IMG/VR virus record: IMGVR_UViG_3300037400_001189
Location: 1 to 64,000 of that record
Length of the DNA: 64,000 nt
DNA from: a virus
Lineage: Duplodnaviria > Caudoviricetes
Reading direction: 5' to 3' (one strand)
Shown here: positions 1 to 13,104 of the stretch, piece after piece
Layout: each line of letters begins with the position of its first letter
Position numbering within the stretch: position 1 is the first letter of the stretch
Notes under the pieces: model-generated
What the model saw: only the letters and a program-made list of their open reading frames with translations
Told to the model about the DNA's origin: nothing
Database searches by the model: none
Position numbers and translations under genes: made by a program

Positions 1-3
1 CAT

Positions 4-3000
4 ATGAGAACAAGTCTTTATGACATGATTTCCGATATGGTTGCTACTACTGCAGCTAATGGAATGCTCAGTGAAGACTTGAACAATGTTCTTAAGCAGC
101 TTCAAGATAGTCTTGGAGTTGAGAACAATGAACAGCTTAAGAAAGAGCTTGCCAGATATGCTGAAGTCTATGGCAGTGCTGCAGTAGGAGACAAGGAAGG
201 CAAGACTGATGAAGTATTCTCCAGACGTAATCTTGTTTCTAGTGACTACTATGAAAATGCCAACGATGTAGAAAACAGAGCTCAGAGATTTGAAGATCTT
301 ATTCAGAATCTTGGAGGCACTAAAGCTGAAGCTAGAAAGCTTCTAGAAGAAGTAGCTGAAGAGAATATCAATGATAAGAATGAAGGATTCAATTCTTCTT
401 TAGCTAAGGCAAAGCAAGCTAGGGAAGAAGGCAATACAGATGTCTATGATTCTGAAGTAAGACATATGACTGACCGTGTTAAATCTATGGTCATGAAGAT
501 GCAGGACATTACTGAAGGTCTTCGCAGCAACATGAACAAGGGAGCCACTACAGACAGCAAAGGCTTCCTTAGCGATGACAAATTCACTATTCAATACGGC
601 AATGAAAAGGATTCCAGCAGAAGAGGAGAGAAAGCTCAGTTCCGTACATCCTTCAAGAAGGAAGCATTCAACTATTCCACTAGAGGTGGACTGTTCAAGA
701 CTACTGACCAGATAGCTAGTGAAGCTAGATACATGGCTGAACAGCTTGACAGCTTGAACCTGTCTGACAAGCAGAAAGCTGATATTAAGCAGCAGCTAGA
801 TCTTCTTCAGGAATACGAGAATGATATCAATCATATGGGTTATGAGCTTCATAGAGGCATTAGAAGAGGCTTCAACTATGAAGCTGACACTGATGGCGAA
901 GCTGTATTGTCTGAAGGAGAAACAGCTAAGATAAAAGGAGCTATGGAAGACTACTTTCACCAGTATGTTACTCCTAATACTGGTGAGAAGAGGCTGTCTC
1001 CAAAGGAAGCTGTAGACCTTAAGAAGTATGTTAATACCCTGTCTCTAGGACAGCTTAAAGCTTTCCAGAAGTCTCTGGACAAGCAGAAGGATTCCATTGC
1101 CTATGAAGGCGTATCTGCAGCTATCAAGGCTAGAGAGTCTGCTAAAGGAATTGCTGCTTCCCATGCTAAATGGAGAGGTACTCACTACCAGAATGGCAAG
1201 TATATTCGTAGTCTAGTCAAAACTACCCAGACTACTGAGAAAGGCAATGAAGCCAAGATAGACAACATGGTTAACGGCACTCATGTAGATGCCATTAACA
1301 ATGCCAATATTCTGGAAGCTCACCATGAACAGCTTCAGCAGAGAATTGCTAAGCTTGAAGCTAAGAAGAATAGAACTAAGAGAGAAGAGAAGAAGCTTAA
1401 TGAGTTAAAGGCTAAGCTGAAGAGTACCAAGGAAAGACTTGGCACTCTTGAAAGAGTTTCTGATGCTAGAGCTAAGACTATCTATAATCAAAATGTAAAG
1501 GCTATCTTAGAGAATCCCACAAAGATTTCTGAACTTATTGCTCAAGTCTATAATGCTAATAAAGCTCAGGATGCCAAGGTAAATGTCAGAGCCATAGAAA
1601 AGGCAATTAAGATGCTTAGAGACACTCTCCATGATGCTTCTTCCATGGAGACTGACAAGGCTAAGCTGAAGGATGCCAAAAAAGCTCTTGAACTGTTAGA
1701 TAAACTTTTAAAGAGAGCAGAGAAGACTGACAGAGTTCTAGAAGGCAGAGATACTATTATCCATAAGCTTATAGACATATGCTCCAAGGAAAATCTTCGT
1801 AATCTTTCTGACATTAATTTCCTTAAGGCATTAAAGCAGTCTATGGAGAAGTTTAAGGATAAGCTTGGAGATAGACTAGAAGCCTATAAGGGTCCCTACA
1901 AGGAAGCTCTCTATAATCTTGCCTATAAGATTAGGCTGATAGAACGCAGTGACGAGAAGCTTGCTAGAGGCATCATCTATGACATTAACCATAATGGCGA
2001 TCTAGATGATCTTAAGTCTAGAGCTGTAGACTATGAAAAAAAGATAGCCAAGCTTCAAGCTAGGAAGTCTCTTTCTCCAGAAGAGCAGAAGACTCTTGAC
2101 AGGTACAAGCAGTACAGCAGTGCCATAGCTAAGCAGACTAAAAAGCTTGAAGACAGAGCTAATGAATTTGAGAATAAGCTTCCTGACAGGCCAGACATCT
2201 TTGCCATTAACGACATAGATGAACTGGAAGATCTTGACAGAACCGTAGTCAATTCTTTGGCTCAGCTGTATGATCTCAAGTCTGAGTTCTATGGCAACAA
2301 GCTTGCCATACAGAAAGTGATGGAAGTCAGGAAAGACATTCAGGCTAAAATAGCTGAACTGTCTGAAAAGCAGGATGCCTCAGAATCGCCTCAGAATGGC
2401 TCAGAATTGACAGAAACAGGTCAGGATGAACAATCTACCACGGATACTCAGGAAGGCTCTCAGAATGGCTCTGAAGGCTCAGAAACGGTATTTGAAGATG
2501 ATGCTTCAGTTAGCAAGTCATTAGAAAACCTTAAGACCAAGTACAGTACTGCTTTAGGCAAGGCAGGCTTGGAAAAGGAACAGGTAAATGCTGTAGTAGA
2601 AGTGCTGATTAATAATGCCAAGATCTTGGCTGATGCTTTTGGCATGTCTGTAGAAGACTATCTGAATACCAGATTTGCTGGTTTTCAGAACATGTCTCAA
2701 AAGGAATTTGAAGAAAAGTATAGTGATGTTCTATATCAAGATGCTTGGCATGGATCTCCATTTGACTTCAATGAATTTAAAACCAGTGCAATCGGTACTG
2801 GTGAAGGAGCCCAGATTCACGGATGGGGTCTATACTTTGCAGCAAGCAAAGATATTAGTGAAGCATATCGTAAAAGATTAACTAATAGTGTTAAAGTACT
2901 TTATAAAGGAGAAGATATAGCAAATGATGCTGATCTATTCCTTACTTTATCTCAAATTTATAATTTAATTAATACTAATACTATTAAAGACCAAGACACT

Positions 3001-6000
3001 CTTCAAACAGAATTAGCAAAAGAACTTGATATCTTAATTAAAGATGAACAAGAATTTTTTGATGCTATTAAAAATGATGATGATCAATCTGGTTCTGAAT
3101 TTGTTGATGAGAAATTAAAGTACTTAAATGATTTAAAAGATAATATTAATGAGTTTAAATATGTAAAAAATGAAGATGAAAAAGGTCAATTATTTAAAGT
3201 TGATATACCTGAAAATGATGTTTTATTAGATGAAGGATTAAAACTAAATAAGCAGCCTAAAAAAGTTATAGAAGCTATAAAGCAAATTCCACCTATAAAG
3301 AAAATTATTGATACAAATCCTTATTACTTGGAGCAGCATACAGGAAGAAATCTTTATGATAAACTTATAGATTTCTTTTTTGAACAAACAGATACTTATA
3401 AAGAAATAAAAGAAGAATACACTGGTGAAAAGCGTAGAGCATTACGCAGAAAACTATATGAAGCTAGAGAAAGTCAAATAGGACCTTTATCTAAACAAGC
3501 TTCTTTGCTTTTAAATAATTATGGCATTGAAGGCATTACATATGAAGGTGGAAGAGATGGTAGATGCTTTGTAGTTTTTGATGACAAGGCTGTAAAAGTT
3601 CTAGAAAAATACTATCAAAGAAAAAGAGGACAGGAAGCTAAGGGTGCTACTACCATTTCAGCTAACCAGTCTCTTATTACTTTGTTTGAAAAAGGTGATG
3701 TAAGCACTGCCCTGCATGAAACATCTCACTTTTTCCTTAATGAAGTAAGAGAGCTTATTAAGTCTGGCAAAGCTCCTAAATGGATGCAGAGCGTATGGAG
3801 CACTCTGCAGAACCAGTACAGCTTTGATGGTCTGCTTGATGGTACTGACAACAAGTCAGTTAAAAGCTGGACTAGAGTGCAGGAAAGATTTGCTAGAGAC
3901 TTTGAAGCCTACATGCGTGAAGGAAAAGCACCTAAGCCTGAACTGCAGAGCATTTTTGATGCATGCAAGAAATGGCTAAAGGCTATCTATAAAACTATTA
4001 GATCTCTTCTTGGCAAGAATAAGCTGTCTCCTGAAATTCGTCAGGCATTTGATGCTTTGTTTACTGGTGAATTCAAAGGAGATGAAAATGTTGCTGTAGA
4101 ATCTGCACTAGAAACATTAAATGTGTGGCATGCTACAGGAGAAAATGCCAATCTTAGTAATTTAGCTCTTAGACCTTTTGACTATGAAGGCAGACACTAT
4201 CAGTCTGTAGAACATGCATATCAGTCTCTTAAATCTGGTTCCTTTGATGAAGCTATATACAATGATCCTAGATGGAGTAATGCAGGAACTAAAATTCAAG
4301 GTAGAAAAGGTACTGACAAGAAAACTAATCTTCAGCTAATGAAGAATCTTATTCTTGAATCCTTTAAGCAGAATGATTCAGCTAGAGAAGAGCTTCTCGC
4401 TACAGGCAATGCCAAGTTTACTCATAAGAGACCTAATGGAAGCAATGGCATATGGGAAACTGAATTTCCTAGAATCTTGGAAGAAGTAAGAGAAGAGCTT
4501 AAAGACTATCAGCCTGAAATAGATAATTCTGATGTATATACATTAGAACAGAATCTACAGCAATTCCTTGATACATATCAGGAAATAGATGAATCACTTC
4601 TTCCTGAAGACATTAGAAATATTCTAACAGAAATATCTGATAGAATGGATGAAGTATCTAAGTATGCTAATGATCCTGCTATATCAAAATATTATGGTAC
4701 TCTGCAGAAACTATATCATGACTATGAACAACTATTAAAAGAAGCTGTTGCTAATGATAATAGTTCTGTTTCTACTACTTCTACGTCTACTTCTATTGAT
4801 GTAACTCTTCCAGAACTGTCTTCTGATCCAAAGGAAGCAGCTATTGAAGCTCAAATTCAGGAAGTTATTAAAAAATACTGGAATCTTGATCCAGACCAAC
4901 CTTCTGGATATTTTGCTAAGGCTATTGATGAAATCTTAGATGCTTATGGATTAACTGCTAAGCTTAGTGCTGAAAAATCTAGCATCTATAATGAATTATA
5001 TATTCAGTTATCTGATCAGTATAATACAGCTTTTTATGAAGCTTTAGACAGAGAAGCAGAAGCAAAAAGAAATAAAAGAGACAAAATTGAGAATACTCCT
5101 AGAGAAAATGAAACTACTGAACAATTAAGAAAACGTCTTATTGTAGGTGGTACAGAAGAAACTGACGAAGCTGATTCAGAAGCAGAGCAGGAAAGAAAAT
5201 ATCATCAGCTGCATTTTCCAAAGCATATAACTTCCAGATGGTCTCAGAAGGCTCTTAACGGTGCTTTCAGAGACATAAAAAATATAAGGAACATATTTGG
5301 TGCTAAAGAATCCTCCATGACTTTGCATGGATTGCCTGACTCCATTATTCCAGACAACTGGAGAGACTATCAGGATGATCCAGAAAGTCCTCTTTATAGA
5401 GATGCTCCATTAGGCAAGCTAGTTGCTTTAGCTGTAGACAGCTTAAGCAAAATTCTTGTTACCTATCATTTCTCTAAAGATACTCCTTTAACTAGATGGG
5501 ATTCTAAGAAGAAAAAGTATGTACCTATAACTGAGTTGAATGGCATTCTTAATAATGTTCTTAGAAATGCTCCACATGTGCAGCTTCTGTATCAACCTGA
5601 TTTAAGCACTATGGAGATTGGTAGAAATTATAAGGGATTTAAATCTTCCTATATAATGGATGCCATGATTAATCCTAATACTGCAGTAGCTATTATTCTT
5701 GGCGTAGCTGAACTGTTTGCCAATAGATCAGTATCCAGCATTTTCAACCCAAAAACTAATGAAGAAATAGCTAGTGCCTTTGGCATGAATCCAGACAATA
5801 TTGATCCTATGGATCTGCAGGTATTCACTAAAGTAGCTAACAAGTATGGTGTATTTAAAAAGAATATTTCCACTACTCTTGGTCATCTTATAATGGATAA
5901 CTTAGGACTAAAGAGAGGAAATAAACTAGAAGAAGAATCATACACTATCTATGACAATTCCGTAGCTGCATTAGGCAACGTAGGACTGCTCTTAGCTGAA

Positions 6001-9000
6001 GAACTTGGTTTCATTACGTCTACAAGAGTATACACTGGAGAATTTCCTACGGCTCCCAGTCCTACTGCTTCTCAGCAGGAAAAGGATGCTTTTCAAAGAG
6101 AAGTATCCAAGTACCTTAAAAGCCGTCATTTAGATGAATTGGACATTACGCCTGAACAGGCTGTTCATCTTGGCTTAGGCCAATCTAATGTAAGATATTT
6201 CTACAAGTACAATGAATCCCAAGAAACTGACAATGCAGTAAAAGAGCTATGGCTCGGTCCAGTAGTAGATACTGCTGATAAAGGTGAATATCTTGGAGAT
6301 TCTGCTCCTGTATACACTAGAGAAGAAAAGTTTGGTGCCAAGTCGTTTAAAGCAGGTAGAGATACCCTTACAAGAACTCCTTTGCTTAATGCTAAAGATG
6401 TTCATAACTCTCCTACTAGACGCAAGCAGCCTAACTTTAAACTTACTGAAAATAGGATGAGAGTATTAAATGAAGAAAGTAAAGCTCCTTACTATATCAA
6501 TACTCCTATTCTAGATGAGATTCTTAAAACATGCGATGGTAATGAAACTAAGATGAGAAAGCTTCTTCTCACTCGCATGGGATGGGATAGCAGAATTGAA
6601 GACGATGACTTTGATGATTTGTCTTATGATGAGAAGACCAAGATTAAAGGCAAGAATGAAAATCTTGAAAGAGAGCTTGATGCTTTCCTAGACTATGCTC
6701 GTCTGCAAAAAGACTTGGAGAGTGAAGGCAAGTTCTTTGGATACTTCTTTAGATACTTTGGTTCTGCCAACGGTCGTTCTTTCATGGATACCAATACCTT
6801 GAATCCTCAGACTTCCAAGGCATTTCCACGTTTCCTATGCCAGCCAGAAACTACCTATCAGGCATATGACCTAAATGATGCAAACGACATTCAATGTGAA
6901 TTGTTTGCTGTAGCTCAGGCATTTGACTGCCTTAAGTCCTATTACAGCTCTAAAGAGAATGAAAGCAGAAATGGCGTATCTCTTGCAGGCAAACTGCTTG
7001 GTCTAGATGTAGTTAATGGAGACATAGCTGATATACAAAAGAGACTAGAAACTCTTAGAGGCATTCAGAGAGATCTTATTCTTAACGATAGCGATACTAA
7101 TGCAGATAAGTATAGTAAAATTGGATGGAATGGTGGATTTGAAAACTTTGGTCAAGCAGTAGTAGCTATAGACCACTGCGTTAGAAGACTTGAAGCTGTT
7201 TTAGCTAAGGGTGGAAAAACTGAAGGAGCTACTATCAGCTCGTATCTTTCAGTAGAGAACGACTCTACTACATCCGGCTATGTAATTAAATTTTTACTTA
7301 TGCCTTTAGACAAGGATCTATTAGCTGAATATGGCTTGAAGATTGGTTATCTTAATCATGCTCTTATACAGAACAATCCTAACTTCTCAAGTGCTTTTAA
7401 GGAAAGAATTAAAGGCTATACTTCTATTGATCAGTTAAAGGCAGACCCAGAATTTTTGGATATCTATAAAACTGGTGCTGTTGAAATGGTCAATGAATAC
7501 GAAAGTATGAAGAGAGAAGCTGAGAAAAAACAGGAGACATTAGGTGAAGTAGCTTTTAATTCTTTATGCACTGTTGAATCTAATGATAAAGAAGATGATA
7601 CTAGAGAACTAAACAGTTTTGGAAAAAAGGTAGACAACGCAGGCATAGATGCAGTTGATGTAGATCGTGCCATTAAAACAGTAGAAGCAGCTATTCCTCA
7701 TCCAGAAAAAGATCCAAAAACTGGCTTATGGAAAGTTTCCAGTGTCTTAAGAAACTTGATGAAGCCTATTATTATGATTTTTGGCTACAATGCTTCAAAT
7801 GAATCTTGTGAAAAGAGATTCGGTGAAGCTGTTATGGATGAGCATATAAAGATTTTTGTCAATCTTTATAATAAGCAAGGTATTTATGGCTCTAAAGGAA
7901 AAGCTGTATTAGCTCCTATAGCTTATGATCTATATAAAGGTAAAAGAAGCAAGGAAGAAATTGATGCTATATTCAATTTCATGACTGACATAGCTCAAAG
8001 AGTTACAGGCTATAAAAATCAAAAGAGTGCCATAGATAAACTTGTAAAAGCTTTAAGAGCTAAATCTCCTTATGCCATTAAGTTTAAATCAATAGCTAGA
8101 GATCAGGTAGGAGTATATAATACCATATCAGTAGCTGAATGGTATAAGCTTGTAGTAGGTGGTACTTTTGGTAAAGCTGTAACCAAATTCTTGGACAAGA
8201 AATTTGGTGCATATGGCAAAGCTAATAGACATCTTAATAATGCTTCCAAGATTACGTTTAAGCTATATTCCCATGTGCGTAATGCTCTTATTAAGCAGCG
8301 TTTAGCTAAGCTTATTGAACAGGATGGCAATCCTGATGCTAGCGATGCAGCTAAGTCTCGCATTCAGTCTTTGAAAAAGAAATATGCATCTCAGGTAGCT
8401 AAAAATGGAAACAAGCTAAGTGTTAATTTCATGGGCATATCCGACTTAAAAACTAGGGAAGTAAGAGTTATAGACAATATATGCAGACCTCTTCTTCCAG
8501 TATTCCAGATGCCTGAAACTGATGCTGACAAAGTTAATCCTAAAACAGGTGCTGTAGTTAGCACCAATATTAGATCTGTTGATACTGCGTCTGCAGATCT
8601 AAGCAACTCTTCTGCAGCTACTCCTATCAAGTCTAGAGACATAGATGGCAACTCTATGCCTGAATACGTTCCTAGAAGCGATAATGAAGCTGATGGCTAC
8701 AAATTTGAAAACGATACTCTCAATTCATACGGTGACATAACAGAGTTTTCTTCTGGTGACCGTATGCTGGCAGTTCTGCTTATTCACTTCGTAGATGGCG
8801 TACTGGCAGAGCATACTATGGATCATATGCTTCAGTTAAAGAAGTATCTTACCGTTATCCATGATGCTTTTGTACTGTCTGCAAAAGATGGCAAGTTCCT
8901 TGACCAAGGCTTTAATGAAGCTCTTGCTAAAGTATGCGAGTATTTCAATCCATTTGAGATAGTTGCTATTGCTCTAAATCAAATGAAAAAAACTTCTCTT

Positions 9001-12000
9001 GAAATATGTGAAAAGAACGGTATTCCAGATTTTGACTTTAGAGCTCCTTTAAATCCAAAAAGATTTGGTTCAAAATTGTTTAATCCTACCTATGGTCAAG
9101 TGCAGCATGAAGTAATTGAACTTAGCAAGTTAGTGCGAAATATTAAAAGAGAGATTTTTAACAGCAATGATCAAATCATTCTTGCTAACTTAGGTGGTGA
9201 TACAGGAGGTCAATATACCATAGCTGGAACAGCTAAAGTACCCGGTGTAGGCAATGAAGTATCCACTCTTACTGCACAGGAAAAGGCTCAAGCTGAGTCT
9301 AGTGCTTTAGGTAGCAGAGCTTCTGCATGGAAGGATAAATATGACATTCAGAGAATAGAACAGGAAGCTAATTCCTCTAAGGAAGGAAGAGCCAAGATAT
9401 TCCAGTCTCTAAATGAATGGGATGAAGCTGAAGGTCCAGTAAAGAATGATGAAGAGTATCTGAAGCAGGCTCAGGAACTTCTTAATGAAATTAATCCTGA
9501 AAGGTTCACTAATCTTCAGTACGAAGAAGCTGTATCCCAGCAGGATGCTGAAGCTAAAGGCGTATACTTTACAGGCAGAGATGGAAGTCAGAGAAGAGTA
9601 ACTGTAATTAAGCCTACAGCTATTGCCAATGAAGCTGATAGGAAGAACAGGCTAGCTTCCAGACAGCTTTCCGCTGCAGCAGTGTACATGCATGAAATGA
9701 TTCACCCTGCTGTCAGTGAAGCTATAGCTAATCCTGATCTGTATGGCGTTACCAGAGAAGTAAGTGTTCTTAGAGAATTCTATAATGCTGTTGCTGACAA
9801 GATTGACTATACATTCTTCAGACCAGATAACTATGATTCTTTAACTGAAGCAGAGAAGAAGCTAGCTGATGAATCTGCTCAAAAGTACTATGACTACATG
9901 TTCAACAGTACTGACAAAGATACGTTAGGAGGCTTCCAAGAATTTATTGCCAATGCTCTTAGCGATCCTAGAATGATTAAGCTTCTAAAGGGCATGGATG
10001 CATCTGCCTATAGCGAGGAGTATAGAGGCAAGAACTTCTTTGAAAAGATATTCTACATAGTCAAGCATATTTTCAAGGCTATGTTTGGCAATGAAGAATC
10101 TAAAGGCAAGGTACTGCGTACTATGGGCACTCTTGGCTTGGAATCCAAGAGGCAAGGCTCTATCTATGATGCCATGAGAAATCTTACTGTGCAGATAAGC
10201 TATGCCAATGCCTATGCTGCCAACAAGATGCAGAACGGCAAGCTGTCCAAGCTTGAAAACGTATTTGAAGCTCTCAACTCTGCTGCTCAGGTAATCAAGC
10301 CTGTAAACGACTTTGTATCCGACAAAATTAAATGGGCATTCGACCTAGGCGGAGTATCCAACAGGTTTGAACGTACCTACAAGAGCTTGGAAGAGATTAT
10401 CAGAGCTCAAGGCATTACAGAAGGTTCCAGTAAAATGGATACTTTGAAGACTCTTCTGATGTGTCCATTCAGCCATAACATGAGAGTAGCCTTGGCAGAC
10501 ACTCTCATAGACTGCTGCTCTCTTGGACAGAGAAGCACCTTTGCACACTTTATCAGAGACATATCCGACAAGGATGACGCTACTAGACAGCTTGAAGGGC
10601 TAGCTTCTCTTAGAAACAACATAGACAGAATGTCCAGAGGTGCAGGAGCTGCATATGCTGCCAATATCCTAGATTCCTTTGGAGGAACCATATCTGACGA
10701 AGACTCCATAGCCTGCACCAAGATAGGCGTAGCATGCGATCTGCAGTCTCTTCTTACAAATGGATATTCCATTGAAGAGATACAGAAGCTGTCCAGCGGT
10801 GACGGCATAGAGGAAGCCATTGCTTCTCATGAAGCTGCCATTGCAAAGCATTACGAGAATGACAAGCATGGCAGAGAAAAGACTACATGGACTAGAAACC
10901 AGTGCATTGGTCTTGCCCACTTCATGAATACCAACAAAGGCAATCCTGCACAGTGCCTCAATGCCTATGCCATTGCCAGAGGCTTCCTCTGCACTTGGAA
11001 GAATGACAAGGCAGACGAGAAGCTTATAGGCCATATCGACTGCTTAACTTCTCTTATTGCCATGCAGAATGCTGATCCTAGCCATAGGCTAGCTATCTCC
11101 AAGATGAATTCAAAGGGATTGAAGACTGTACTGGAATGCCATAGAAGCCTTATAGGCAAGGCATTTGATGCAGGCTACATTGAAAGAGCTCACATGATTA
11201 AGGGATGGCATTCCTCTATCATAGACGATACCAAGGACTATGCAGTAGCTCCTGTAGATCCTGCTACAGTAAAAGCTATGGCTGACGATGGATACAAGCT
11301 CAATACAGAGCTTCCTGTAGACGGCATGACCAATGCTGTAATGGGATTCTACATCAAGAGTGTAACTACTCCACAGCATAGGCAAGGTGCAGCTCTTCAG
11401 ATTACAGGAAAGAGAGCTATAGGCCAGTCTCTTAACTCCTTCATGGAAAGCAACGAGCATATTATAGGAGACAGAAGAGACTACATTACAAGGCAGATAA
11501 AGAAGGCTCACTTCATTAGAACCAAGATGCAGGCTAGAATGGAAACTCTAGACGGTCTTAGCTATGAAGATTTCGACAATAGAGGACTAGTTGGTTCCTA
11601 CTATACTCCTGTAATTAGTCCTAATGGAGACGTAACAGACTTCCGCATTACCATGTTTAACGACTTCAAGGATGCAGTCATGAACAGAAACAACAATATC
11701 TGCGATGTCATGTCCAAGATGGCTATGACAAATACTGTCAAGACAAGTGCAGGAGGACAGAATACCAACATAGTTCATTTCCTTATAGACGACATGGAAA
11801 AGAACATGGATCCAGATACCCATAGAGCTAGGAGACAGTTTGAAAATCTTGGCGAAGTAGTGCTTGGAAGCAAGGAGCTTAGAAACAAGCATGACATCAA
11901 GTATGTAAGAGTAAGAATTGATCCTGACTCTGAATTTGCTGCTCCAGACGTTCCTGCTGCTATCATTCCAGAAGAAATGAGGGAAGCTATGAGAAGACTG

Positions 12001-13104
12001 GAGAAGAATGGAGACGGTCTATGGGTTAGGGAAGACTGGCTCTATCAGATATTTGGCACTCCTGACATTTCTCTTGCAGATGCCAAGGTAATGCAGAAGG
12101 AAAATATGAGAGCTGCCAAATTTGGCATTAGGCTAGCTGAAAACATTGCCAAGGCAGTAGCCACTCTTGCCAAGGTAGCTATCGTATTCAAGAAGCCTCA
12201 GGTACTAGTAGGCAATGCCGTATCCAACTATCTGTTCCATATAATGAATGGACATAATCCAGTTACTGCAGCTGCTATGGATACCGAGAATCTGCAGCTA
12301 GTAATCAAGTACATGCAGACGGAAAAGGAAATCAACAGACTGGATATCAAGAAGGACATTGGAGAAGCTACTGCATCAGAAAAGGCTAAGCTTAACAGGC
12401 TAAGATCTGCTCTGGAGAACAATCCTATTCACAAGCTAGTTCAGGCAGGACTCTTCTCTGCAGTTGTAGAAGACAACAGCAAGAAGGATCAGGATGCCAT
12501 GAAGGCTATGCTTAGATACATTAGCGACAATCCAAAGATGCAGAAAATAGCCAAGTCTGCTTTAGGCGATGCATTCGACATGAAGACTGTAAAAGGAAAG
12601 ATTGCAGGACAGCTCTACATGAGAGAAGGAACTCCTCTCTATGACTTCATCTATGCAATGACCCAGTATTCAGACTTTGTATCCAGATGTACCGACTACC
12701 GCATTGGAATGAAGCAGATGCCTGAATCGTTCAGAGGCAATGCCGACATGAAGAGAAAGTATGAGACTGCTCTTATTCAGCAGATAAGAGACGACTACAT
12801 CAACTACGATTCTCCTCAGTCCAAAGCTATGAACTACGTCAATGCAGTAGGCTTGACATTCTTTACAAAATACTTTTTCAGAATTCAGAGAGTAATACGC
12901 AGAACAACCACTAGACGGCCACTAATGGCATTTAGTATGATGGCTGCCAATGCTCATTTCGATACGCCTGACAACATATTTGAACAAATGCCACTAAGCA
13001 AAAACTATGGAGCCATATTCCATACTCCATGGGGCAATGCTGCTGACTTGGTATTTCCACCTGCATTTGGTGCATACAATCCAGCAAACTGGTGGCCTTT
13101 CTAG
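4..13104 (+). CDS. Virion-encapsidated RNA polymerase (N4 gp50-like) with extra N-terminal-half modules
   Basis: T7-type motifs: SANGR (DxxGR-like, ~6760), motif A ENDSTTSG (~7255), motif B RNLMKPIIMIFGY (Rx3Kx7Y, ~7750), HFVDG, motif C IHDAF (~8857). Giant size and late-strand position match N4. The frame is open at the window edge (CAT at 1-3), so the true start may lie upstream. Confidence 0.9.
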   Translation: MRTSLYDMISDMVATTAANGMLSEDLNNVLKQLQDSLGVENNEQLKKELARYAEVYGSAAVGDKEGKTDEVFSRRNLVSSDYYENANDVENRAQRFEDLIQNLGGTKAEARKLLEEVAEENINDKNEGFNSSLAKAKQAREEGNTDVYDSEVRHMTDRVKSMVMKMQDITEGLRSNMNKGATTDSKGFLSDDKFTIQYGNEKDSSRRGEKAQFRTSFKKEAFNYSTRGGLFKTTDQIASEARYMAEQLDSLNLSDKQKADIKQQLDLLQEYENDINHMGYELHRGIRRGFNYEADTDGEAVLSEGETAKIKGAMEDYFHQYVTPNTGEKRLSPKEAVDLKKYVNTLSLGQLKAFQKSLDKQKDSIAYEGVSAAIKARESAKGIAASHAKWRGTHYQNGKYIRSLVKTTQTTEKGNEAKIDNMVNGTHVDAINNANILEAHHEQLQQRIAKLEAKKNRTKREEKKLNELKAKLKSTKERLGTLERVSDARAKTIYNQNVKAILENPTKISELIAQVYNANKAQDAKVNVRAIEKAIKMLRDTLHDASSMETDKAKLKDAKKALELLDKLLKRAEKTDRVLEGRDTIIHKLIDICSKENLRNLSDINFLKALKQSMEKFKDKLGDRLEAYKGPYKEALYNLAYKIRLIERSDEKLARGIIYDINHNGDLDDLKSRAVDYEKKIAKLQARKSLSPEEQKTLDRYKQYSSAIAKQTKKLEDRANEFENKLPDRPDIFAINDIDELEDLDRTVVNSLAQLYDLKSEFYGNKLAIQKVMEVRKDIQAKIAELSEKQDASESPQNGSELTETGQDEQSTTDTQEGSQNGSEGSETVFEDDASVSKSLENLKTKYSTALGKAGLEKEQVNAVVEVLINNAKILADAFGMSVEDYLNTRFAGFQNMSQKEFEEKYSDVLYQDAWHGSPFDFNEFKTSAIGTGEGAQIHGWGLYFAASKDISEAYRKRLTNSVKVLYKGEDIANDADLFLTLSQIYNLINTNTIKDQDTLQTELAKELDILIKDEQEFFDAIKNDDDQSGSEFVDEKLKYLNDLKDNINEFKYVKNEDEKGQLFKVDIPENDVLLDEGLKLNKQPKKVIEAIKQIPPIKKIIDTNPYYLEQHTGRNLYDKLIDFFFEQTDTYKEIKEEYTGEKRRALRRKLYEARESQIGPLSKQASLLLNNYGIEGITYEGGRDGRCFVVFDDKAVKVLEKYYQRKRGQEAKGATTISANQSLITLFEKGDVSTALHETSHFFLNEVRELIKSGKAPKWMQSVWSTLQNQYSFDGLLDGTDNKSVKSWTRVQERFARDFEAYMREGKAPKPELQSIFDACKKWLKAIYKTIRSLLGKNKLSPEIRQAFDALFTGEFKGDENVAVESALETLNVWHATGENANLSNLALRPFDYEGRHYQSVEHAYQSLKSGSFDEAIYNDPRWSNAGTKIQGRKGTDKKTNLQLMKNLILESFKQNDSAREELLATGNAKFTHKRPNGSNGIWETEFPRILEEVREELKDYQPEIDNSDVYTLEQNLQQFLDTYQEIDESLLPEDIRNILTEISDRMDEVSKYANDPAISKYYGTLQKLYHDYEQLLKEAVANDNSSVSTTSTSTSIDVTLPELSSDPKEAAIEAQIQEVIKKYWNLDPDQPSGYFAKAIDEILDAYGLTAKLSAEKSSIYNELYIQLSDQYNTAFYEALDREAEAKRNKRDKIENTPRENETTEQLRKRLIVGGTEETDEADSEAEQERKYHQLHFPKHITSRWSQKALNGAFRDIKNIRNIFGAKESSMTLHGLPDSIIPDNWRDYQDDPESPLYRDAPLGKLVALAVDSLSKILVTYHFSKDTPLTRWDSKKKKYVPITELNGILNNVLRNAPHVQLLYQPDLSTMEIGRNYKGFKSSYIMDAMINPNTAVAIILGVAELFANRSVSSIFNPKTNEEIASAFGMNPDNIDPMDLQVFTKVANKYGVFKKNISTTLGHLIMDNLGLKRGNKLEEESYTIYDNSVAALGNVGLLLAEELGFITSTRVYTGEFPTAPSPTASQQEKDAFQREVSKYLKSRHLDELDITPEQAVHLGLGQSNVRYFYKYNESQETDNAVKELWLGPVVDTADKGEYLGDSAPVYTREEKFGAKSFKAGRDTLTRTPLLNAKDVHNSPTRRKQPNFKLTENRMRVLNEESKAPYYINTPILDEILKTCDGNETKMRKLLLTRMGWDSRIEDDDFDDLSYDEKTKIKGKNENLERELDAFLDYARLQKDLESEGKFFGYFFRYFGSANGRSFMDTNTLNPQTSKAFPRFLCQPETTYQAYDLNDANDIQCELFAVAQAFDCLKSYYSSKENESRNGVSLAGKLLGLDVVNGDIADIQKRLETLRGIQRDLILNDSDTNADKYSKIGWNGGFENFGQAVVAIDHCVRRLEAVLAKGGKTEGATISSYLSVENDSTTSGYVIKFLLMPLDKDLLAEYGLKIGYLNHALIQNNPNFSSAFKERIKGYTSIDQLKADPEFLDIYKTGAVEMVNEYESMKREAEKKQETLGEVAFNSLCTVESNDKEDDTRELNSFGKKVDNAGIDAVDVDRAIKTVEAAIPHPEKDPKTGLWKVSSVLRNLMKPIIMIFGYNASNESCEKRFGEAVMDEHIKIFVNLYNKQGIYGSKGKAVLAPIAYDLYKGKRSKEEIDAIFNFMTDIAQRVTGYKNQKSAIDKLVKALRAKSPYAIKFKSIARDQVGVYNTISVAEWYKLVVGGTFGKAVTKFLDKKFGAYGKANRHLNNASKITFKLYSHVRNALIKQRLAKLIEQDGNPDASDAAKSRIQSLKKKYASQVAKNGNKLSVNFMGISDLKTREVRVIDNICRPLLPVFQMPETDADKVNPKTGAVVSTNIRSVDTASADLSNSSAATPIKSRDIDGNSMPEYVPRSDNEADGYKFENDTLNSYGDITEFSSGDRMLAVLLIHFVDGVLAEHTMDHMLQLKKYLTVIHDAFVLSAKDGKFLDQGFNEALAKVCEYFNPFEIVAIALNQMKKTSLEICEKNGIPDFDFRAPLNPKRFGSKLFNPTYGQVQHEVIELSKLVRNIKREIFNSNDQIILANLGGDTGGQYTIAGTAKVPGVGNEVSTLTAQEKAQAESSALGSRASAWKDKYDIQRIEQEANSSKEGRAKIFQSLNEWDEAEGPVKNDEEYLKQAQELLNEINPERFTNLQYEEAVSQQDAEAKGVYFTGRDGSQRRVTVIKPTAIANEADRKNRLASRQLSAAAVYMHEMIHPAVSEAIANPDLYGVTREVSVLREFYNAVADKIDYTFFRPDNYDSLTEAEKKLADESAQKYYDYMFNSTDKDTLGGFQEFIANALSDPRMIKLLKGMDASAYSEEYRGKNFFEKIFYIVKHIFKAMFGNEESKGKVLRTMGTLGLESKRQGSIYDAMRNLTVQISYANAYAANKMQNGKLSKLENVFEALNSAAQVIKPVNDFVSDKIKWAFDLGGVSNRFERTYKSLEEIIRAQGITEGSSKMDTLKTLLMCPFSHNMRVALADTLIDCCSLGQRSTFAHFIRDISDKDDATRQLEGLASLRNNIDRMSRGAGAAYAANILDSFGGTISDEDSIACTKIGVACDLQSLLTNGYSIEEIQKLSSGDGIEEAIASHEAAIAKHYENDKHGREKTTWTRNQCIGLAHFMNTNKGNPAQCLNAYAIARGFLCTWKNDKADEKLIGHIDCLTSLIAMQNADPSHRLAISKMNSKGLKTVLECHRSLIGKAFDAGYIERAHMIKGWHSSIIDDTKDYAVAPVDPATVKAMADDGYKLNTELPVDGMTNAVMGFYIKSVTTPQHRQGAALQITGKRAIGQSLNSFMESNEHIIGDRRDYITRQIKKAHFIRTKMQARMETLDGLSYEDFDNRGLVGSYYTPVISPNGDVTDFRITMFNDFKDAVMNRNNNICDVMSKMAMTNTVKTSAGGQNTNIVHFLIDDMEKNMDPDTHRARRQFENLGEVVLGSKELRNKHDIKYVRVRIDPDSEFAAPDVPAAIIPEEMREAMRRLEKNGDGLWVREDWLYQIFGTPDISLADAKVMQKENMRAAKFGIRLAENIAKAVATLAKVAIVFKKPQVLVGNAVSNYLFHIMNGHNPVTAAAMDTENLQLVIKYMQTEKEINRLDIKKDIGEATASEKAKLNRLRSALENNPIHKLVQAGLFSAVVEDNSKKDQDAMKAMLRYISDNPKMQKIAKSALGDAFDMKTVKGKIAGQLYMREGTPLYDFIYAMTQYSDFVSRCTDYRIGMKQMPESFRGNADMKRKYETALIQQIRDDYINYDSPQSKAMNYVNAVGLTFFTKYFFRIQRVIRRTTTRRPLMAFSMMAANAHFDTPDNIFEQMPLSKNYGAIFHTPWGNAADLVFPPAFGAYNPANWWPF

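Follow-up and report, generated by a model that had tools for sequence, protein, structure and literature searches.

What would a bacteriophage gain by building enzymes of ADP-ribose metabolism into an RNA polymerase that probably travels in its own capsid? The question is raised by a giant open reading frame (ORF) at the beginning of IMGVR_UViG_3300037400_001189, a complete viral record of 75,006 bp in IMG/VR, of which bases 1-64000 were analysed here (the window). A first-pass annotation, made without database searches, placed in this ORF an ADP-ribosyltransferase (ART)-like domain and a domain of the NADAR/YbiA family, both upstream of the core of an N4-type virion RNA polymerase (vRNAP), and proposed that the particle delivers an ADP-ribose eraser and possibly a writer along with it. 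The domain assignments and the identity of the polymerase have stood up to profile and structure comparison, and the idea of a writer coupled to an eraser has not.

Judged from its sequence, the ORF encodes the N4-type vRNAP of a podophage that is N4-like and uncultured, and it has the build of a polyvalent protein. Ahead of the polymerase core it carries an ART domain joined to a zincin-like metallopeptidase, followed by a compact NADAR domain of the phage type. The reading that we favour, and consider probable on the analogy with N4, is that the injected vRNAP serves as a polyvalent protein whose ART-zincin and NADAR cassettes would act at entry.

Identity of the polymerase

Both sets of motifs recognised in the first pass lie in one uninterrupted ORF on the + strand (frame 1, window 1-13104), which is open at its 5' end in the window. 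Residue numbers follow its translation, P0001, the first residue of which is encoded at window base 4. The family phrog_2206 ('virion RNA polymerase', 3406 positions) matches this protein collinearly over the polymerase core and the C-terminal domain: its positions 1028-1535 correspond to residues 1890-2512 (E=6.6e-14), positions 1559-1882 to residues 2574-2997 (E=3.1e-5), and positions 2342-3376 to residues 3222-4327 (E=5.5e-105). These matches confirm the host protein as an N4-type vRNAP, and they also confirm that both extra domains are upstream of the core, as each of them precedes residue ~1890. The single-subunit RNA polymerase core (residues ~1890-3064; nt 5671-9195, + strand) has, in addition, a weak match to the T7-type RNA polymerase family phrog_414, and the T7-like motifs R-x3-K-x7-GY and HDAF can be read directly in its translation. 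The C-terminal domain (residues 3222-4327; nt 9667-12984, + strand) is likewise matched by Schitoviridae vRNAPs in tblastn: the search returned 270 phage records, and the matches listed are virion polymerases of the Schitoviridae type, aligned over the C-terminal third at 22-25% identity. Sister proteins of the window vRNAP (see below) have a weak match to Pfam vRNAP_dom_2. The genome context is N4-like, with a portal (phrog_1216), rIIA/B and a primase, and the vRNAP gene closes the block of structural genes.

An HExxH motif, HEMIH (nt 9691-9705), is found at the start of the C-terminal domain; it is the second in the protein, the first being that of the zincin domain. N4 gp50 also has a zincin-like motif downstream of its polymerase, in a region required for encapsidation (Iyer 2017, PMC5512222).

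The gene extends beyond the window. The two ends of the record share an exact overlap of 127 bp (window 1-127; L002:10880-11006 = G000 74880-75006), which is labelled 'direct terminal repeat' and suggests a circular assembly. Across this overlap the vRNAP frame continues in phase upstream for 661 codons (1983 nt), to a start at G000 72897 (= L002:8897). Seven sister proteins, encoded on contigs of 18-77 kb, start ~645-665 residues ahead of P0001 residue 1, and the three that were checked align to the upstream 661 residues at 59-67% identity. Because of the in-frame continuation across the overlap, and because the sisters align to the added part, we take the full length of the vRNAP to be ~5028 residues; the 127-bp junction cuts the gene, so that gene callers give 4359-4366 residues instead. 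The ORF as first annotated was thus in the correct frame and at correct coordinates, and needs amendment only in its 5' end, upstream of which there are 661 more codons. This upstream part (L002:8897-10879) has no cysteine and shows only weak matches, to the PBECR3 nuclease (E=0.029, residues 168-213) and to DUF1149 (E=0.0019). The N-terminal 899 residues had no match among phages.

A NADAR domain of the phage type

The region noted as NADAR at nt 4119-4505 (residues 1372-1501) corresponds to a compact phage-type NADAR domain at residues 1372-1505 (nt 4117-4518, + strand), delimited by Pfam, profile and model evidence. In alignment A2, made of the window domain and 30 compact homologues of 126-237 residues (39-59% identity, some with TARA ocean labels), 15 of the 31 rows match NADAR, and the A2 profile matches YbiA (2b3w) at 3.2e-8 and the Phytophthora NADAR (8bau) at 5e-4. 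The structural model (pLDDT 93) gives Z 13.4 to 8bau (root-mean-square deviation 2.5, 130 residues aligned), 13.3 to 2b3w and 8.0 to 8bat; these are exactly the three solved NADARs that it matches, and the next match drops to Z 2.6. Profile and fold therefore agree on a NADAR/YbiA domain, the fold over the very segment, residues ~1370-1500, in which it had been proposed.

Glu, Lys, His, Trp and an FP motif are invariant in the 31 sequences, and they include E1403 (nt 4210), K1410 (nt 4231) and H1474 (nt 4423; all on the + strand). The catalytic pair Glu-x6-Lys (E1403/K1410) is intact. Alignment by hhalign to T4 gp30.3 brings E36, K43 and the His of that protein onto E1403, K1410 and H1474; E36 and K43 are essential for AdfN, as gp30.3 is also called, which strips DarT1 marks from phage DNA (PMC11257639). 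H1474 aligns with E125 of 8bau, and the first-pass annotation saw in this TH, standing where canonical members have an acidic motif, a reason to doubt catalysis. A His in the last strand, however, is the hallmark of phage NADARs, where it replaces the YbiA-type Glu or the Asp of DarG1 (PMC11543638, PMC11125620), and T4 gp30.3/AdfN, which carries this phage-type His, is active (PMC11257639). As the His is a subtype hallmark, the doubt is resolved in favour of what is predicted to be a working enzyme of a known subtype.

The gp30.3 family proper (Phage_30_3, PF08010) scores only 17.8 bits on the domain, against a cut-off of 36, and hhalign gives E=2.6e-4 with a probability of 42%. We file the compact, ~130-residue NADAR as a putative subgroup separate from the gp30.3 family and remotely related to it. 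No other NADAR, no other ART and no Macro domain was found in this genome.

The ART-PolyVal domain and the adjoining zincin

The ART-like region noted at nt 2740-3620 (residues 913-1206 of P0001) falls in an ART-PolyVal domain, residues 911-1206 (nt 2734-3621, + strand), recognised by Pfam, phmmer and a structural model; its PARP/diphtheria-toxin-like fold is split and contains two helical inserts. A phmmer search with this region, run against 1.84 billion representatives, matched 10,495 cluster representatives at E<=1e-3, of which 137 reach E<=1e-30 and the best 4.5e-71, and many of the matches cover the whole 310-residue unit. In alignment A1, the window segment with 37 homologues, 29 of the 38 rows match ART-PolyVal (best E 5.9e-30). 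We regard the homology to ART-PolyVal, as read from these alignments, as secure despite a Pfam score below the threshold.

The AlphaFold model of the domain (pLDDT 81.7) has a split beta-core interrupted by the two helical inserts. Its top match in VIA-align is 9k3a_B (Z 11.0, 164 residues aligned), followed by a series of ARTs of the H-Y-E clade, with PARP13 (8.1), tankyrase 2 (8.0), PARP10 (7.6), diphtheria toxin (7.3) and PARP1 (7.3) and, further down, by ParT (6.8), MbcT (6.7) and exotoxin A (6.2). Each of these Z-scores is middling alone, and what counts is how consistent the list is: among the 50 best matches, more than 20 are ARTs of the PARP, diphtheria-toxin, ParT or MbcT type, which cover both halves of the domain (model residues ~11-320). 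The fold is visible by VIA-align rather than Foldseek, which found nothing at E<=0.001 with the ART model and gave only 63-residue matches to tankyrase, and 9k3a_B at 0.017. Searches of PDB by sequence were likewise empty, as phmmer with the ART-zincin region returned nothing meaningful, and the A1 profile only designed helical proteins. Family homology and a PARP/diphtheria-toxin-like fold thus substantiate the ART-like domain, with Z of 6.2-8.1 to known ARTs for residues ~910-1210, where the first pass had located it.

In a 147-sequence alignment, nearly every highly conserved position is kept in the window protein. These are H916-G; G-W-G-L-Y944-F-A; Y955; the block GQLFKVDIPENDVLLDE; Y1180; and D1185-G-R-C1188-F-V-V-F-D1193-D1194. 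H916 (nt 2749), the NAD-pocket His of strand 1, Y944 (nt 2833), the Tyr of strand 2, and Y955 (nt 2866), the second Tyr, occupy family positions that are kept in 142/147, 147/147 and 147/147 sequences, respectively, and the distance of 11 between the two tyrosines is also that between Y896 and Y907 of PARP1. The strand RCFVV, with C1188 (nt 3565), is flanked by acids kept in 138/147 (D1185, nt 3556), 139/147 (D1193, nt 3580) and 137/147 (D1194) sequences; all these residues are encoded on the + strand. The first pass had noted RCFVVF at a place where an acidic residue is often found, and considered catalysis unproven. The entire ART-PolyVal family, however, which has been described as belonging to the H-Y-D clade (Iyer 2017, PMC5512222), has 'DGRCFVVFDD' as its consensus, and the stretch is no sign of decay.

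The main rival explanation of this domain gives it a non-catalytic, structural role: the ART-like domain would be catalytically dead, its function being that of a structural bead in the ejection apparatus or of a NAD-binding module. Its best structural match, at Z 11.0, is indeed a structural layer, which in cyanophage A4 belongs to the pre-ejectosome; Cys or Arg takes the canonical Glu position; and we found no reported activity for the ART-PolyVal family. A pure scaffold, on the other hand, would have no need of the NAD-pocket residues H, Y and Y with the flanking GxGxYFA, and yet 142 to 147 of the 147 representatives, divergent as these are, have kept them. There are also active mono-ARTs that lack the Glu, for example PARP10 (H-Y-I), and this counts against a dead domain. 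An H-Y-D active site has, moreover, been assigned to the family (Iyer 2017). On balance we view a dead ART as a doubtful alternative, albeit one to be taken seriously.

Between ART and NADAR lies a domain that the first pass did not list, a zincin-like metallopeptidase at residues ~1215-1360 (nt 3646-4083, + strand), with the motif HETSH at nt 3715-3729 and a match to phrog_9880 at E=2.5e-35. The A1 consensus has HExxH immediately after the ART, and hundreds of polyvalent proteins of 2400-4200 residues cover 47-74% of the ART-zincin region at E-values of 1e-53 to 1e-102. By these matches ART and zincin make up a widespread conserved two-domain unit; a metallopeptidase (MPTase) of polyvalent proteins has been described (PMC5512222). 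In tblastn the zincin has matches in small phages, to large proteins of which BPP-1 bbp10 is an example; some of them carry an annotation as lysin or lysis protein.

Two independent cassettes

Are ART and NADAR parts of one device? Eight sister polymerases, that of this phage and P0003, P0006, P0007, P0008, P0009, P0011 and P0022, were aligned. All eight have in common a low-complexity linker rich in Ser, Thr, Glu and Gln (residues ~796-832; nt 2389-2499, + strand), directly after which the cassettes attach; it is analogous to the linker at residues 907-1006 of N4 gp50, between the N-terminal domain and the RNA polymerase (PMC13434306). In this phage the linker is followed by an ART-zincin cassette (residues ~833-1363; nt 2500-4092, + strand, with boundaries defined by indels in the sister alignment) and then by NADAR. 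P0003 has the ART-zincin cassette without NADAR; P0007, P0009 and P0011 have NADAR directly after the linker; P0006 and P0008 have a ~100-residue module unrelated to ART-zincin and then NADAR; and P0022 has the same ~100-residue module, NADAR and then DUF4326. The ~100-residue module occupies the place of the ART-zincin cassette (it aligns to window ~2500-4090). In total, the ART-zincin cassette occurs in 2/8 proteins, being cleanly absent from six sisters, NADAR occurs in 7/8, and the two occur together in 1/8. The alignment shows ART-zincin and NADAR to be two independent cassettes.

This independence makes a writer/eraser couple, in which NADAR would shield the phage DNA from the phage's own ART, unlikely. 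Such a couple would have precedents in the ART-NADAR toxin-antitoxin pairs DarT1-NADAR and YarT-YbiA (PMC11543638, PMC11125620), and in this phage both domains do belong to one polypeptide. Yet six sisters have NADAR without ART, and P0003 has ART without NADAR; the ART module is present in 0/53 other NADAR-bearing giant viral ORFs examined; and the ART-zincin unit is found in thousands of proteins without NADAR. We consider a matched pair very improbable. This reading was rejected for want of obligate co-occurrence (1/8 sisters, 0/53 other giant ORFs).

Residues 1401-1500, in NADAR, are 87-97% identical to six sisters and are the most conserved 100 residues of the protein among them; identity is mostly 24-41% from residue 1501 to ~2100 and 40-74% in the core. 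Such a high identity of NADAR points to strong constraint or recent exchange. P0003 and the window protein are 44% identical by BLAST over residues 737-1605. Within the stretch aligned to window 2500-4092, the lead-in and the zincin of P0003 look near-identical to those of this phage, and its ART core looks much more diverged; the mosaic cassette suggests recombination within the cassette. P0003 gave no Pfam match at E<=0.01, yet its ART is clear by alignment. The G+C content is 0.35-0.36 over window 2001-6000, the cassette region, versus ~0.40-0.44 elsewhere, which fits horizontally acquired modules.

NADAR fusions in other virion polymerases

The fusion of NADAR to a vRNAP is not limited to this phage and its sisters. 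In IMG/VR, 307 viral loci encode the compact NADAR type; among the best 80 of these, 47 lie in open frames of at least 1000 residues and 26 are stand-alone genes of 131-168 residues. Twenty of the giant NADAR-bearing ORFs were tested against phrog_2206, and 7/20 proved to be N4-type vRNAPs with an in-frame NADAR, in open frames of 3941, 3942, 4043, 4459, 4667, 5151 and at least 2975 residues. The survey of other N4-type vRNAPs, proposed with the first-pass annotation, has therefore yielded seven further NADAR fusions; one more locus, L008, belongs to the sister clade. In most of the surveyed vRNAPs NADAR is at residues ~1020-1360, and in one record it falls between phrog_2206 positions 820 and 1023. 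In L087 (IMGVR_UViG_3300026260_000015, locus 10001-10390) it is found between the core and the C-terminal domain (phrog_2206 positions 2012/2259). This insertion at a second linker, after the core and not before it, argues for independent acquisitions, and NADAR fusion recurs in at least eight lineages of N4-type polymerases. Among GenBank phages, tblastn matched no Schitoviridae record to ART or NADAR; its threshold was E<=1e-3 and its query this single divergent domain, and it also missed Roseovarius Plymouth podovirus 1 (RPP1), which does have ART.

Other large viral proteins carry the domain, too. In L009 (IMGVR_UViG_3300031994_000053), an 89.9-kb viral contig, NADAR is part of an open frame of at least 6018 residues with no match to phrog_2206. 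CrAss-like phages have the same compact NADAR in large proteins, namely cr131_1 gp48 (L003; 1401 residues), which is flanked by two giant genes, and cr126_1 QOR59539.1 (L004; 2402 residues).

One could speculate that NADAR has been repeatedly recruited to virion RNA polymerases both of the N4 type, with a single subunit, and of the crAss type, with two barrels, as an in-cis cleaner of the template at first transcription, tethered in the linker where the DNA enters, and that this is a general rule for injected polymerases; we rate so broad a rule as decidedly unlikely at present. DarT-type enzymes ADP-ribosylate single-stranded DNA, and N4 vRNAP reads its DNA-hairpin promoters on just such DNA, which is the reason that we propose for the recruitment. 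Templates of single-stranded DNA may also serve the crAss-type polymerase.

Proposed role at entry

Delivery together with the DNA is a reasonable supposition, given that the host protein is an N4-type vRNAP; N4 and DEV (PMC13434306), together with the position of the gene, suggest that it is packaged in the virion and ejected into the host cell. N4 gp50 is ejected as beads on a string, with the 100-residue low-complexity linker 907-1006 between the membrane-binding N-terminal domain and the polymerase, which refolds in the cytoplasm and stays tethered to the membrane by that linker (PMC13434306). By analogy, the capsid would contain the whole chain of the window vRNAP, which, as beads on a string, would be threaded into the cell. 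The extra domains would refold beside the entering DNA, in the cytoplasm, with the membrane-anchored N-terminal part on one side of them and the polymerase on the other. We place the cassettes as extra cytoplasmic beads because they come directly after the low-complexity linker and upstream of the core; the NADAR of closer N4 relatives falls in the equivalent gap of phrog_2206, which supports this placement. NADAR would there strip ADP-ribose, ahead of the expression of any phage gene, either from guanine in the DNA of the phage or from a different N-glycosidic ADP-ribose conjugate; it would be a pre-made version of T4 AdfN. The predicted NADAR may plausibly protect the hairpin promoters from DarT. 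Like T4 Alt, the ART would place mono-ADP-ribose on a target in the host; the zincin would be either an effector or a protease that processes the chain.

Several points weigh against this reading. A phmmer search of PDB with the polymerase core found nothing meaningful and did not reach the N4 mini-vRNAP; the polymerase clade is divergent. Both enzyme domains stay below their Pfam cut-offs, NADAR (PF08719) with 30.9 bits and E=3.8e-7 against 35.1, and ART-PolyVal (PF18760) with 26.4 bits and E=1.3e-5 against 31.2. By spacing relative to PARP1 (EYIVYD versus CFVVFD), Cys1188 stands at the position of the canonical Glu (PARP1 E988); the catalytic acid of the ART could then be D1185 or D1193/D1194, all three being candidates. 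The literature searched contains no biochemical study of any ART-PolyVal member. On the side of NADAR, one study saw no rescue of E. coli from DarT1 by T4 gp30.3 (PMC11125620), and in view of this NADAR specificity is context-dependent. Finally, phage NADARs have been argued to act mostly on soluble ADP-ribose derivatives (Iyer et al. 2022, PMC9503650).

From this last argument comes the main rival for NADAR, in which the substrate is a soluble ADP-ribose signal or RNA (PMC9503650): at entry, NADAR would destroy soluble immune signals or toxins derived from ADP-ribose, or else ADP-ribosylated or NAD-capped RNA. Iyer et al. 2022 favour soluble ADP-ribose derivatives as targets of phage NADARs in general, and P0022 and phage AgentSmith fuse NADAR to DUF4326, which is predicted to process ADP-ribose phosphates. 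NADARs also reverse ADP-ribosylation of cytidine and may reverse that of RNA, according to two reports (PMC12945103, PMC11833690). Against this, each phage NADAR tested so far removes guanine ADP-ribose in DNA, with DarTG1 countered in vivo by three of them (PMC11257639); here, the Glu and Lys that catalyse this reaction are invariant; and NADAR has been tethered again and again to polymerases that transcribe injected DNA, which fits DNA as the substrate. We think it unlikely, if still credible, that the soluble or RNA substrate is the relevant one, and we favour an action on phage DNA.

Parts of this picture are not new. An ART inside an N4-like vRNAP was published already in 2017, and the window ART is one more member; NADARs are already known as phage counter-defence; and virion-packaged NADARs have been predicted, as stand-alone proteins (Iyer et al. 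2022, PMC9503650). The literature searched yielded no paper on NADAR in connection with an N4-type vRNAP, and the word NADAR is absent from the 2017 paper on polyvalent proteins (PMC5512222). If NADAR is delivered ready-made with the polymerase, ADP-ribosylation of the DNA would be undone before the first gene is transcribed, in an interval that free-standing early proteins such as AdfN cannot cover. The comparison further points to the linker of the polymerase, at the site of the linker between the N-terminal domain and the RNA polymerase of N4, as a plug-in site for counter-defence modules and a place to seek new ones.

Comparison with known systems

The closest precedent for the ART is the vRNAP of RPP1, the prototype of the polyvalent-protein ART family (Iyer 2017, PMC5512222). 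Its domains were checked in CBX87992.1: ART-PolyVal at residues 1023-1096 (36.5 bits), zincin at 1252-1387, and N4 RNA polymerase domains from 2043. The order of ART, zincin and polymerase core is the same as in the window vRNAP, and so is the predicted role, that of an injected effector. Unlike the window vRNAP, however, the RPP1 protein has no NADAR and is shorter (3760 versus ~5028 residues), and its ART is only distantly similar to that of the window (hhalign E=0.003).

Two other phage systems can be compared with the ART part. T4 Alt is an ADP-ribosyltransferase that resides in the head and is injected with the DNA, as the window ART probably is, by analogy. Alt, however, falls in the R-S-E clade and has no polymerase fused to it, whereas the window ART is of the H-Y-D (PARP/diphtheria-toxin-like) clade. 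In cyanophage A4, residues 1418-1610 of gp27, a protein of the outer layer of the pre-ejectosome (9k3a chain B; PMC12002296), match the model of the window ART at 13% identity. Here an ART-shaped domain is physically inside a podophage capsid, but is not part of a polymerase. The text of the A4 paper has no 'ADP-ribosyl' (PMC12002296), and the ART-like domain suggested by the model comparison may have gone unremarked in that structure.

N4 gp50 is similar to the window vRNAP in overall plan. Both consist of an N-terminal part, a linker, a single-subunit RNA polymerase as well as a C-terminal domain that is large and has HExxH, and they share the beads-on-a-string logic and an N4-like genome context. 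No ART or NADAR has been reported in gp50, and the 2026 structure paper (PMC13434306) contains neither term. Unlike that of gp50, the linker region of the window vRNAP, as in other lineages, carries ~700 residues of enzyme cassettes.

The NADARs of T4 (AdfN, gp30.3), Bas32 and Bas60 defeat DarTG1 (PMC11257639; PMC11125620) and share the NADAR fold. T4 AdfN resembles the window NADAR in having Glu and Lys seven residues apart and the phage-type His, and the relationship between the two is remote (25% identity). They differ above all in the manner of delivery: T4 AdfN stands alone as an early protein, synthesised once infection has occurred, while the window NADAR is part of a protein that is probably packed in the virion.

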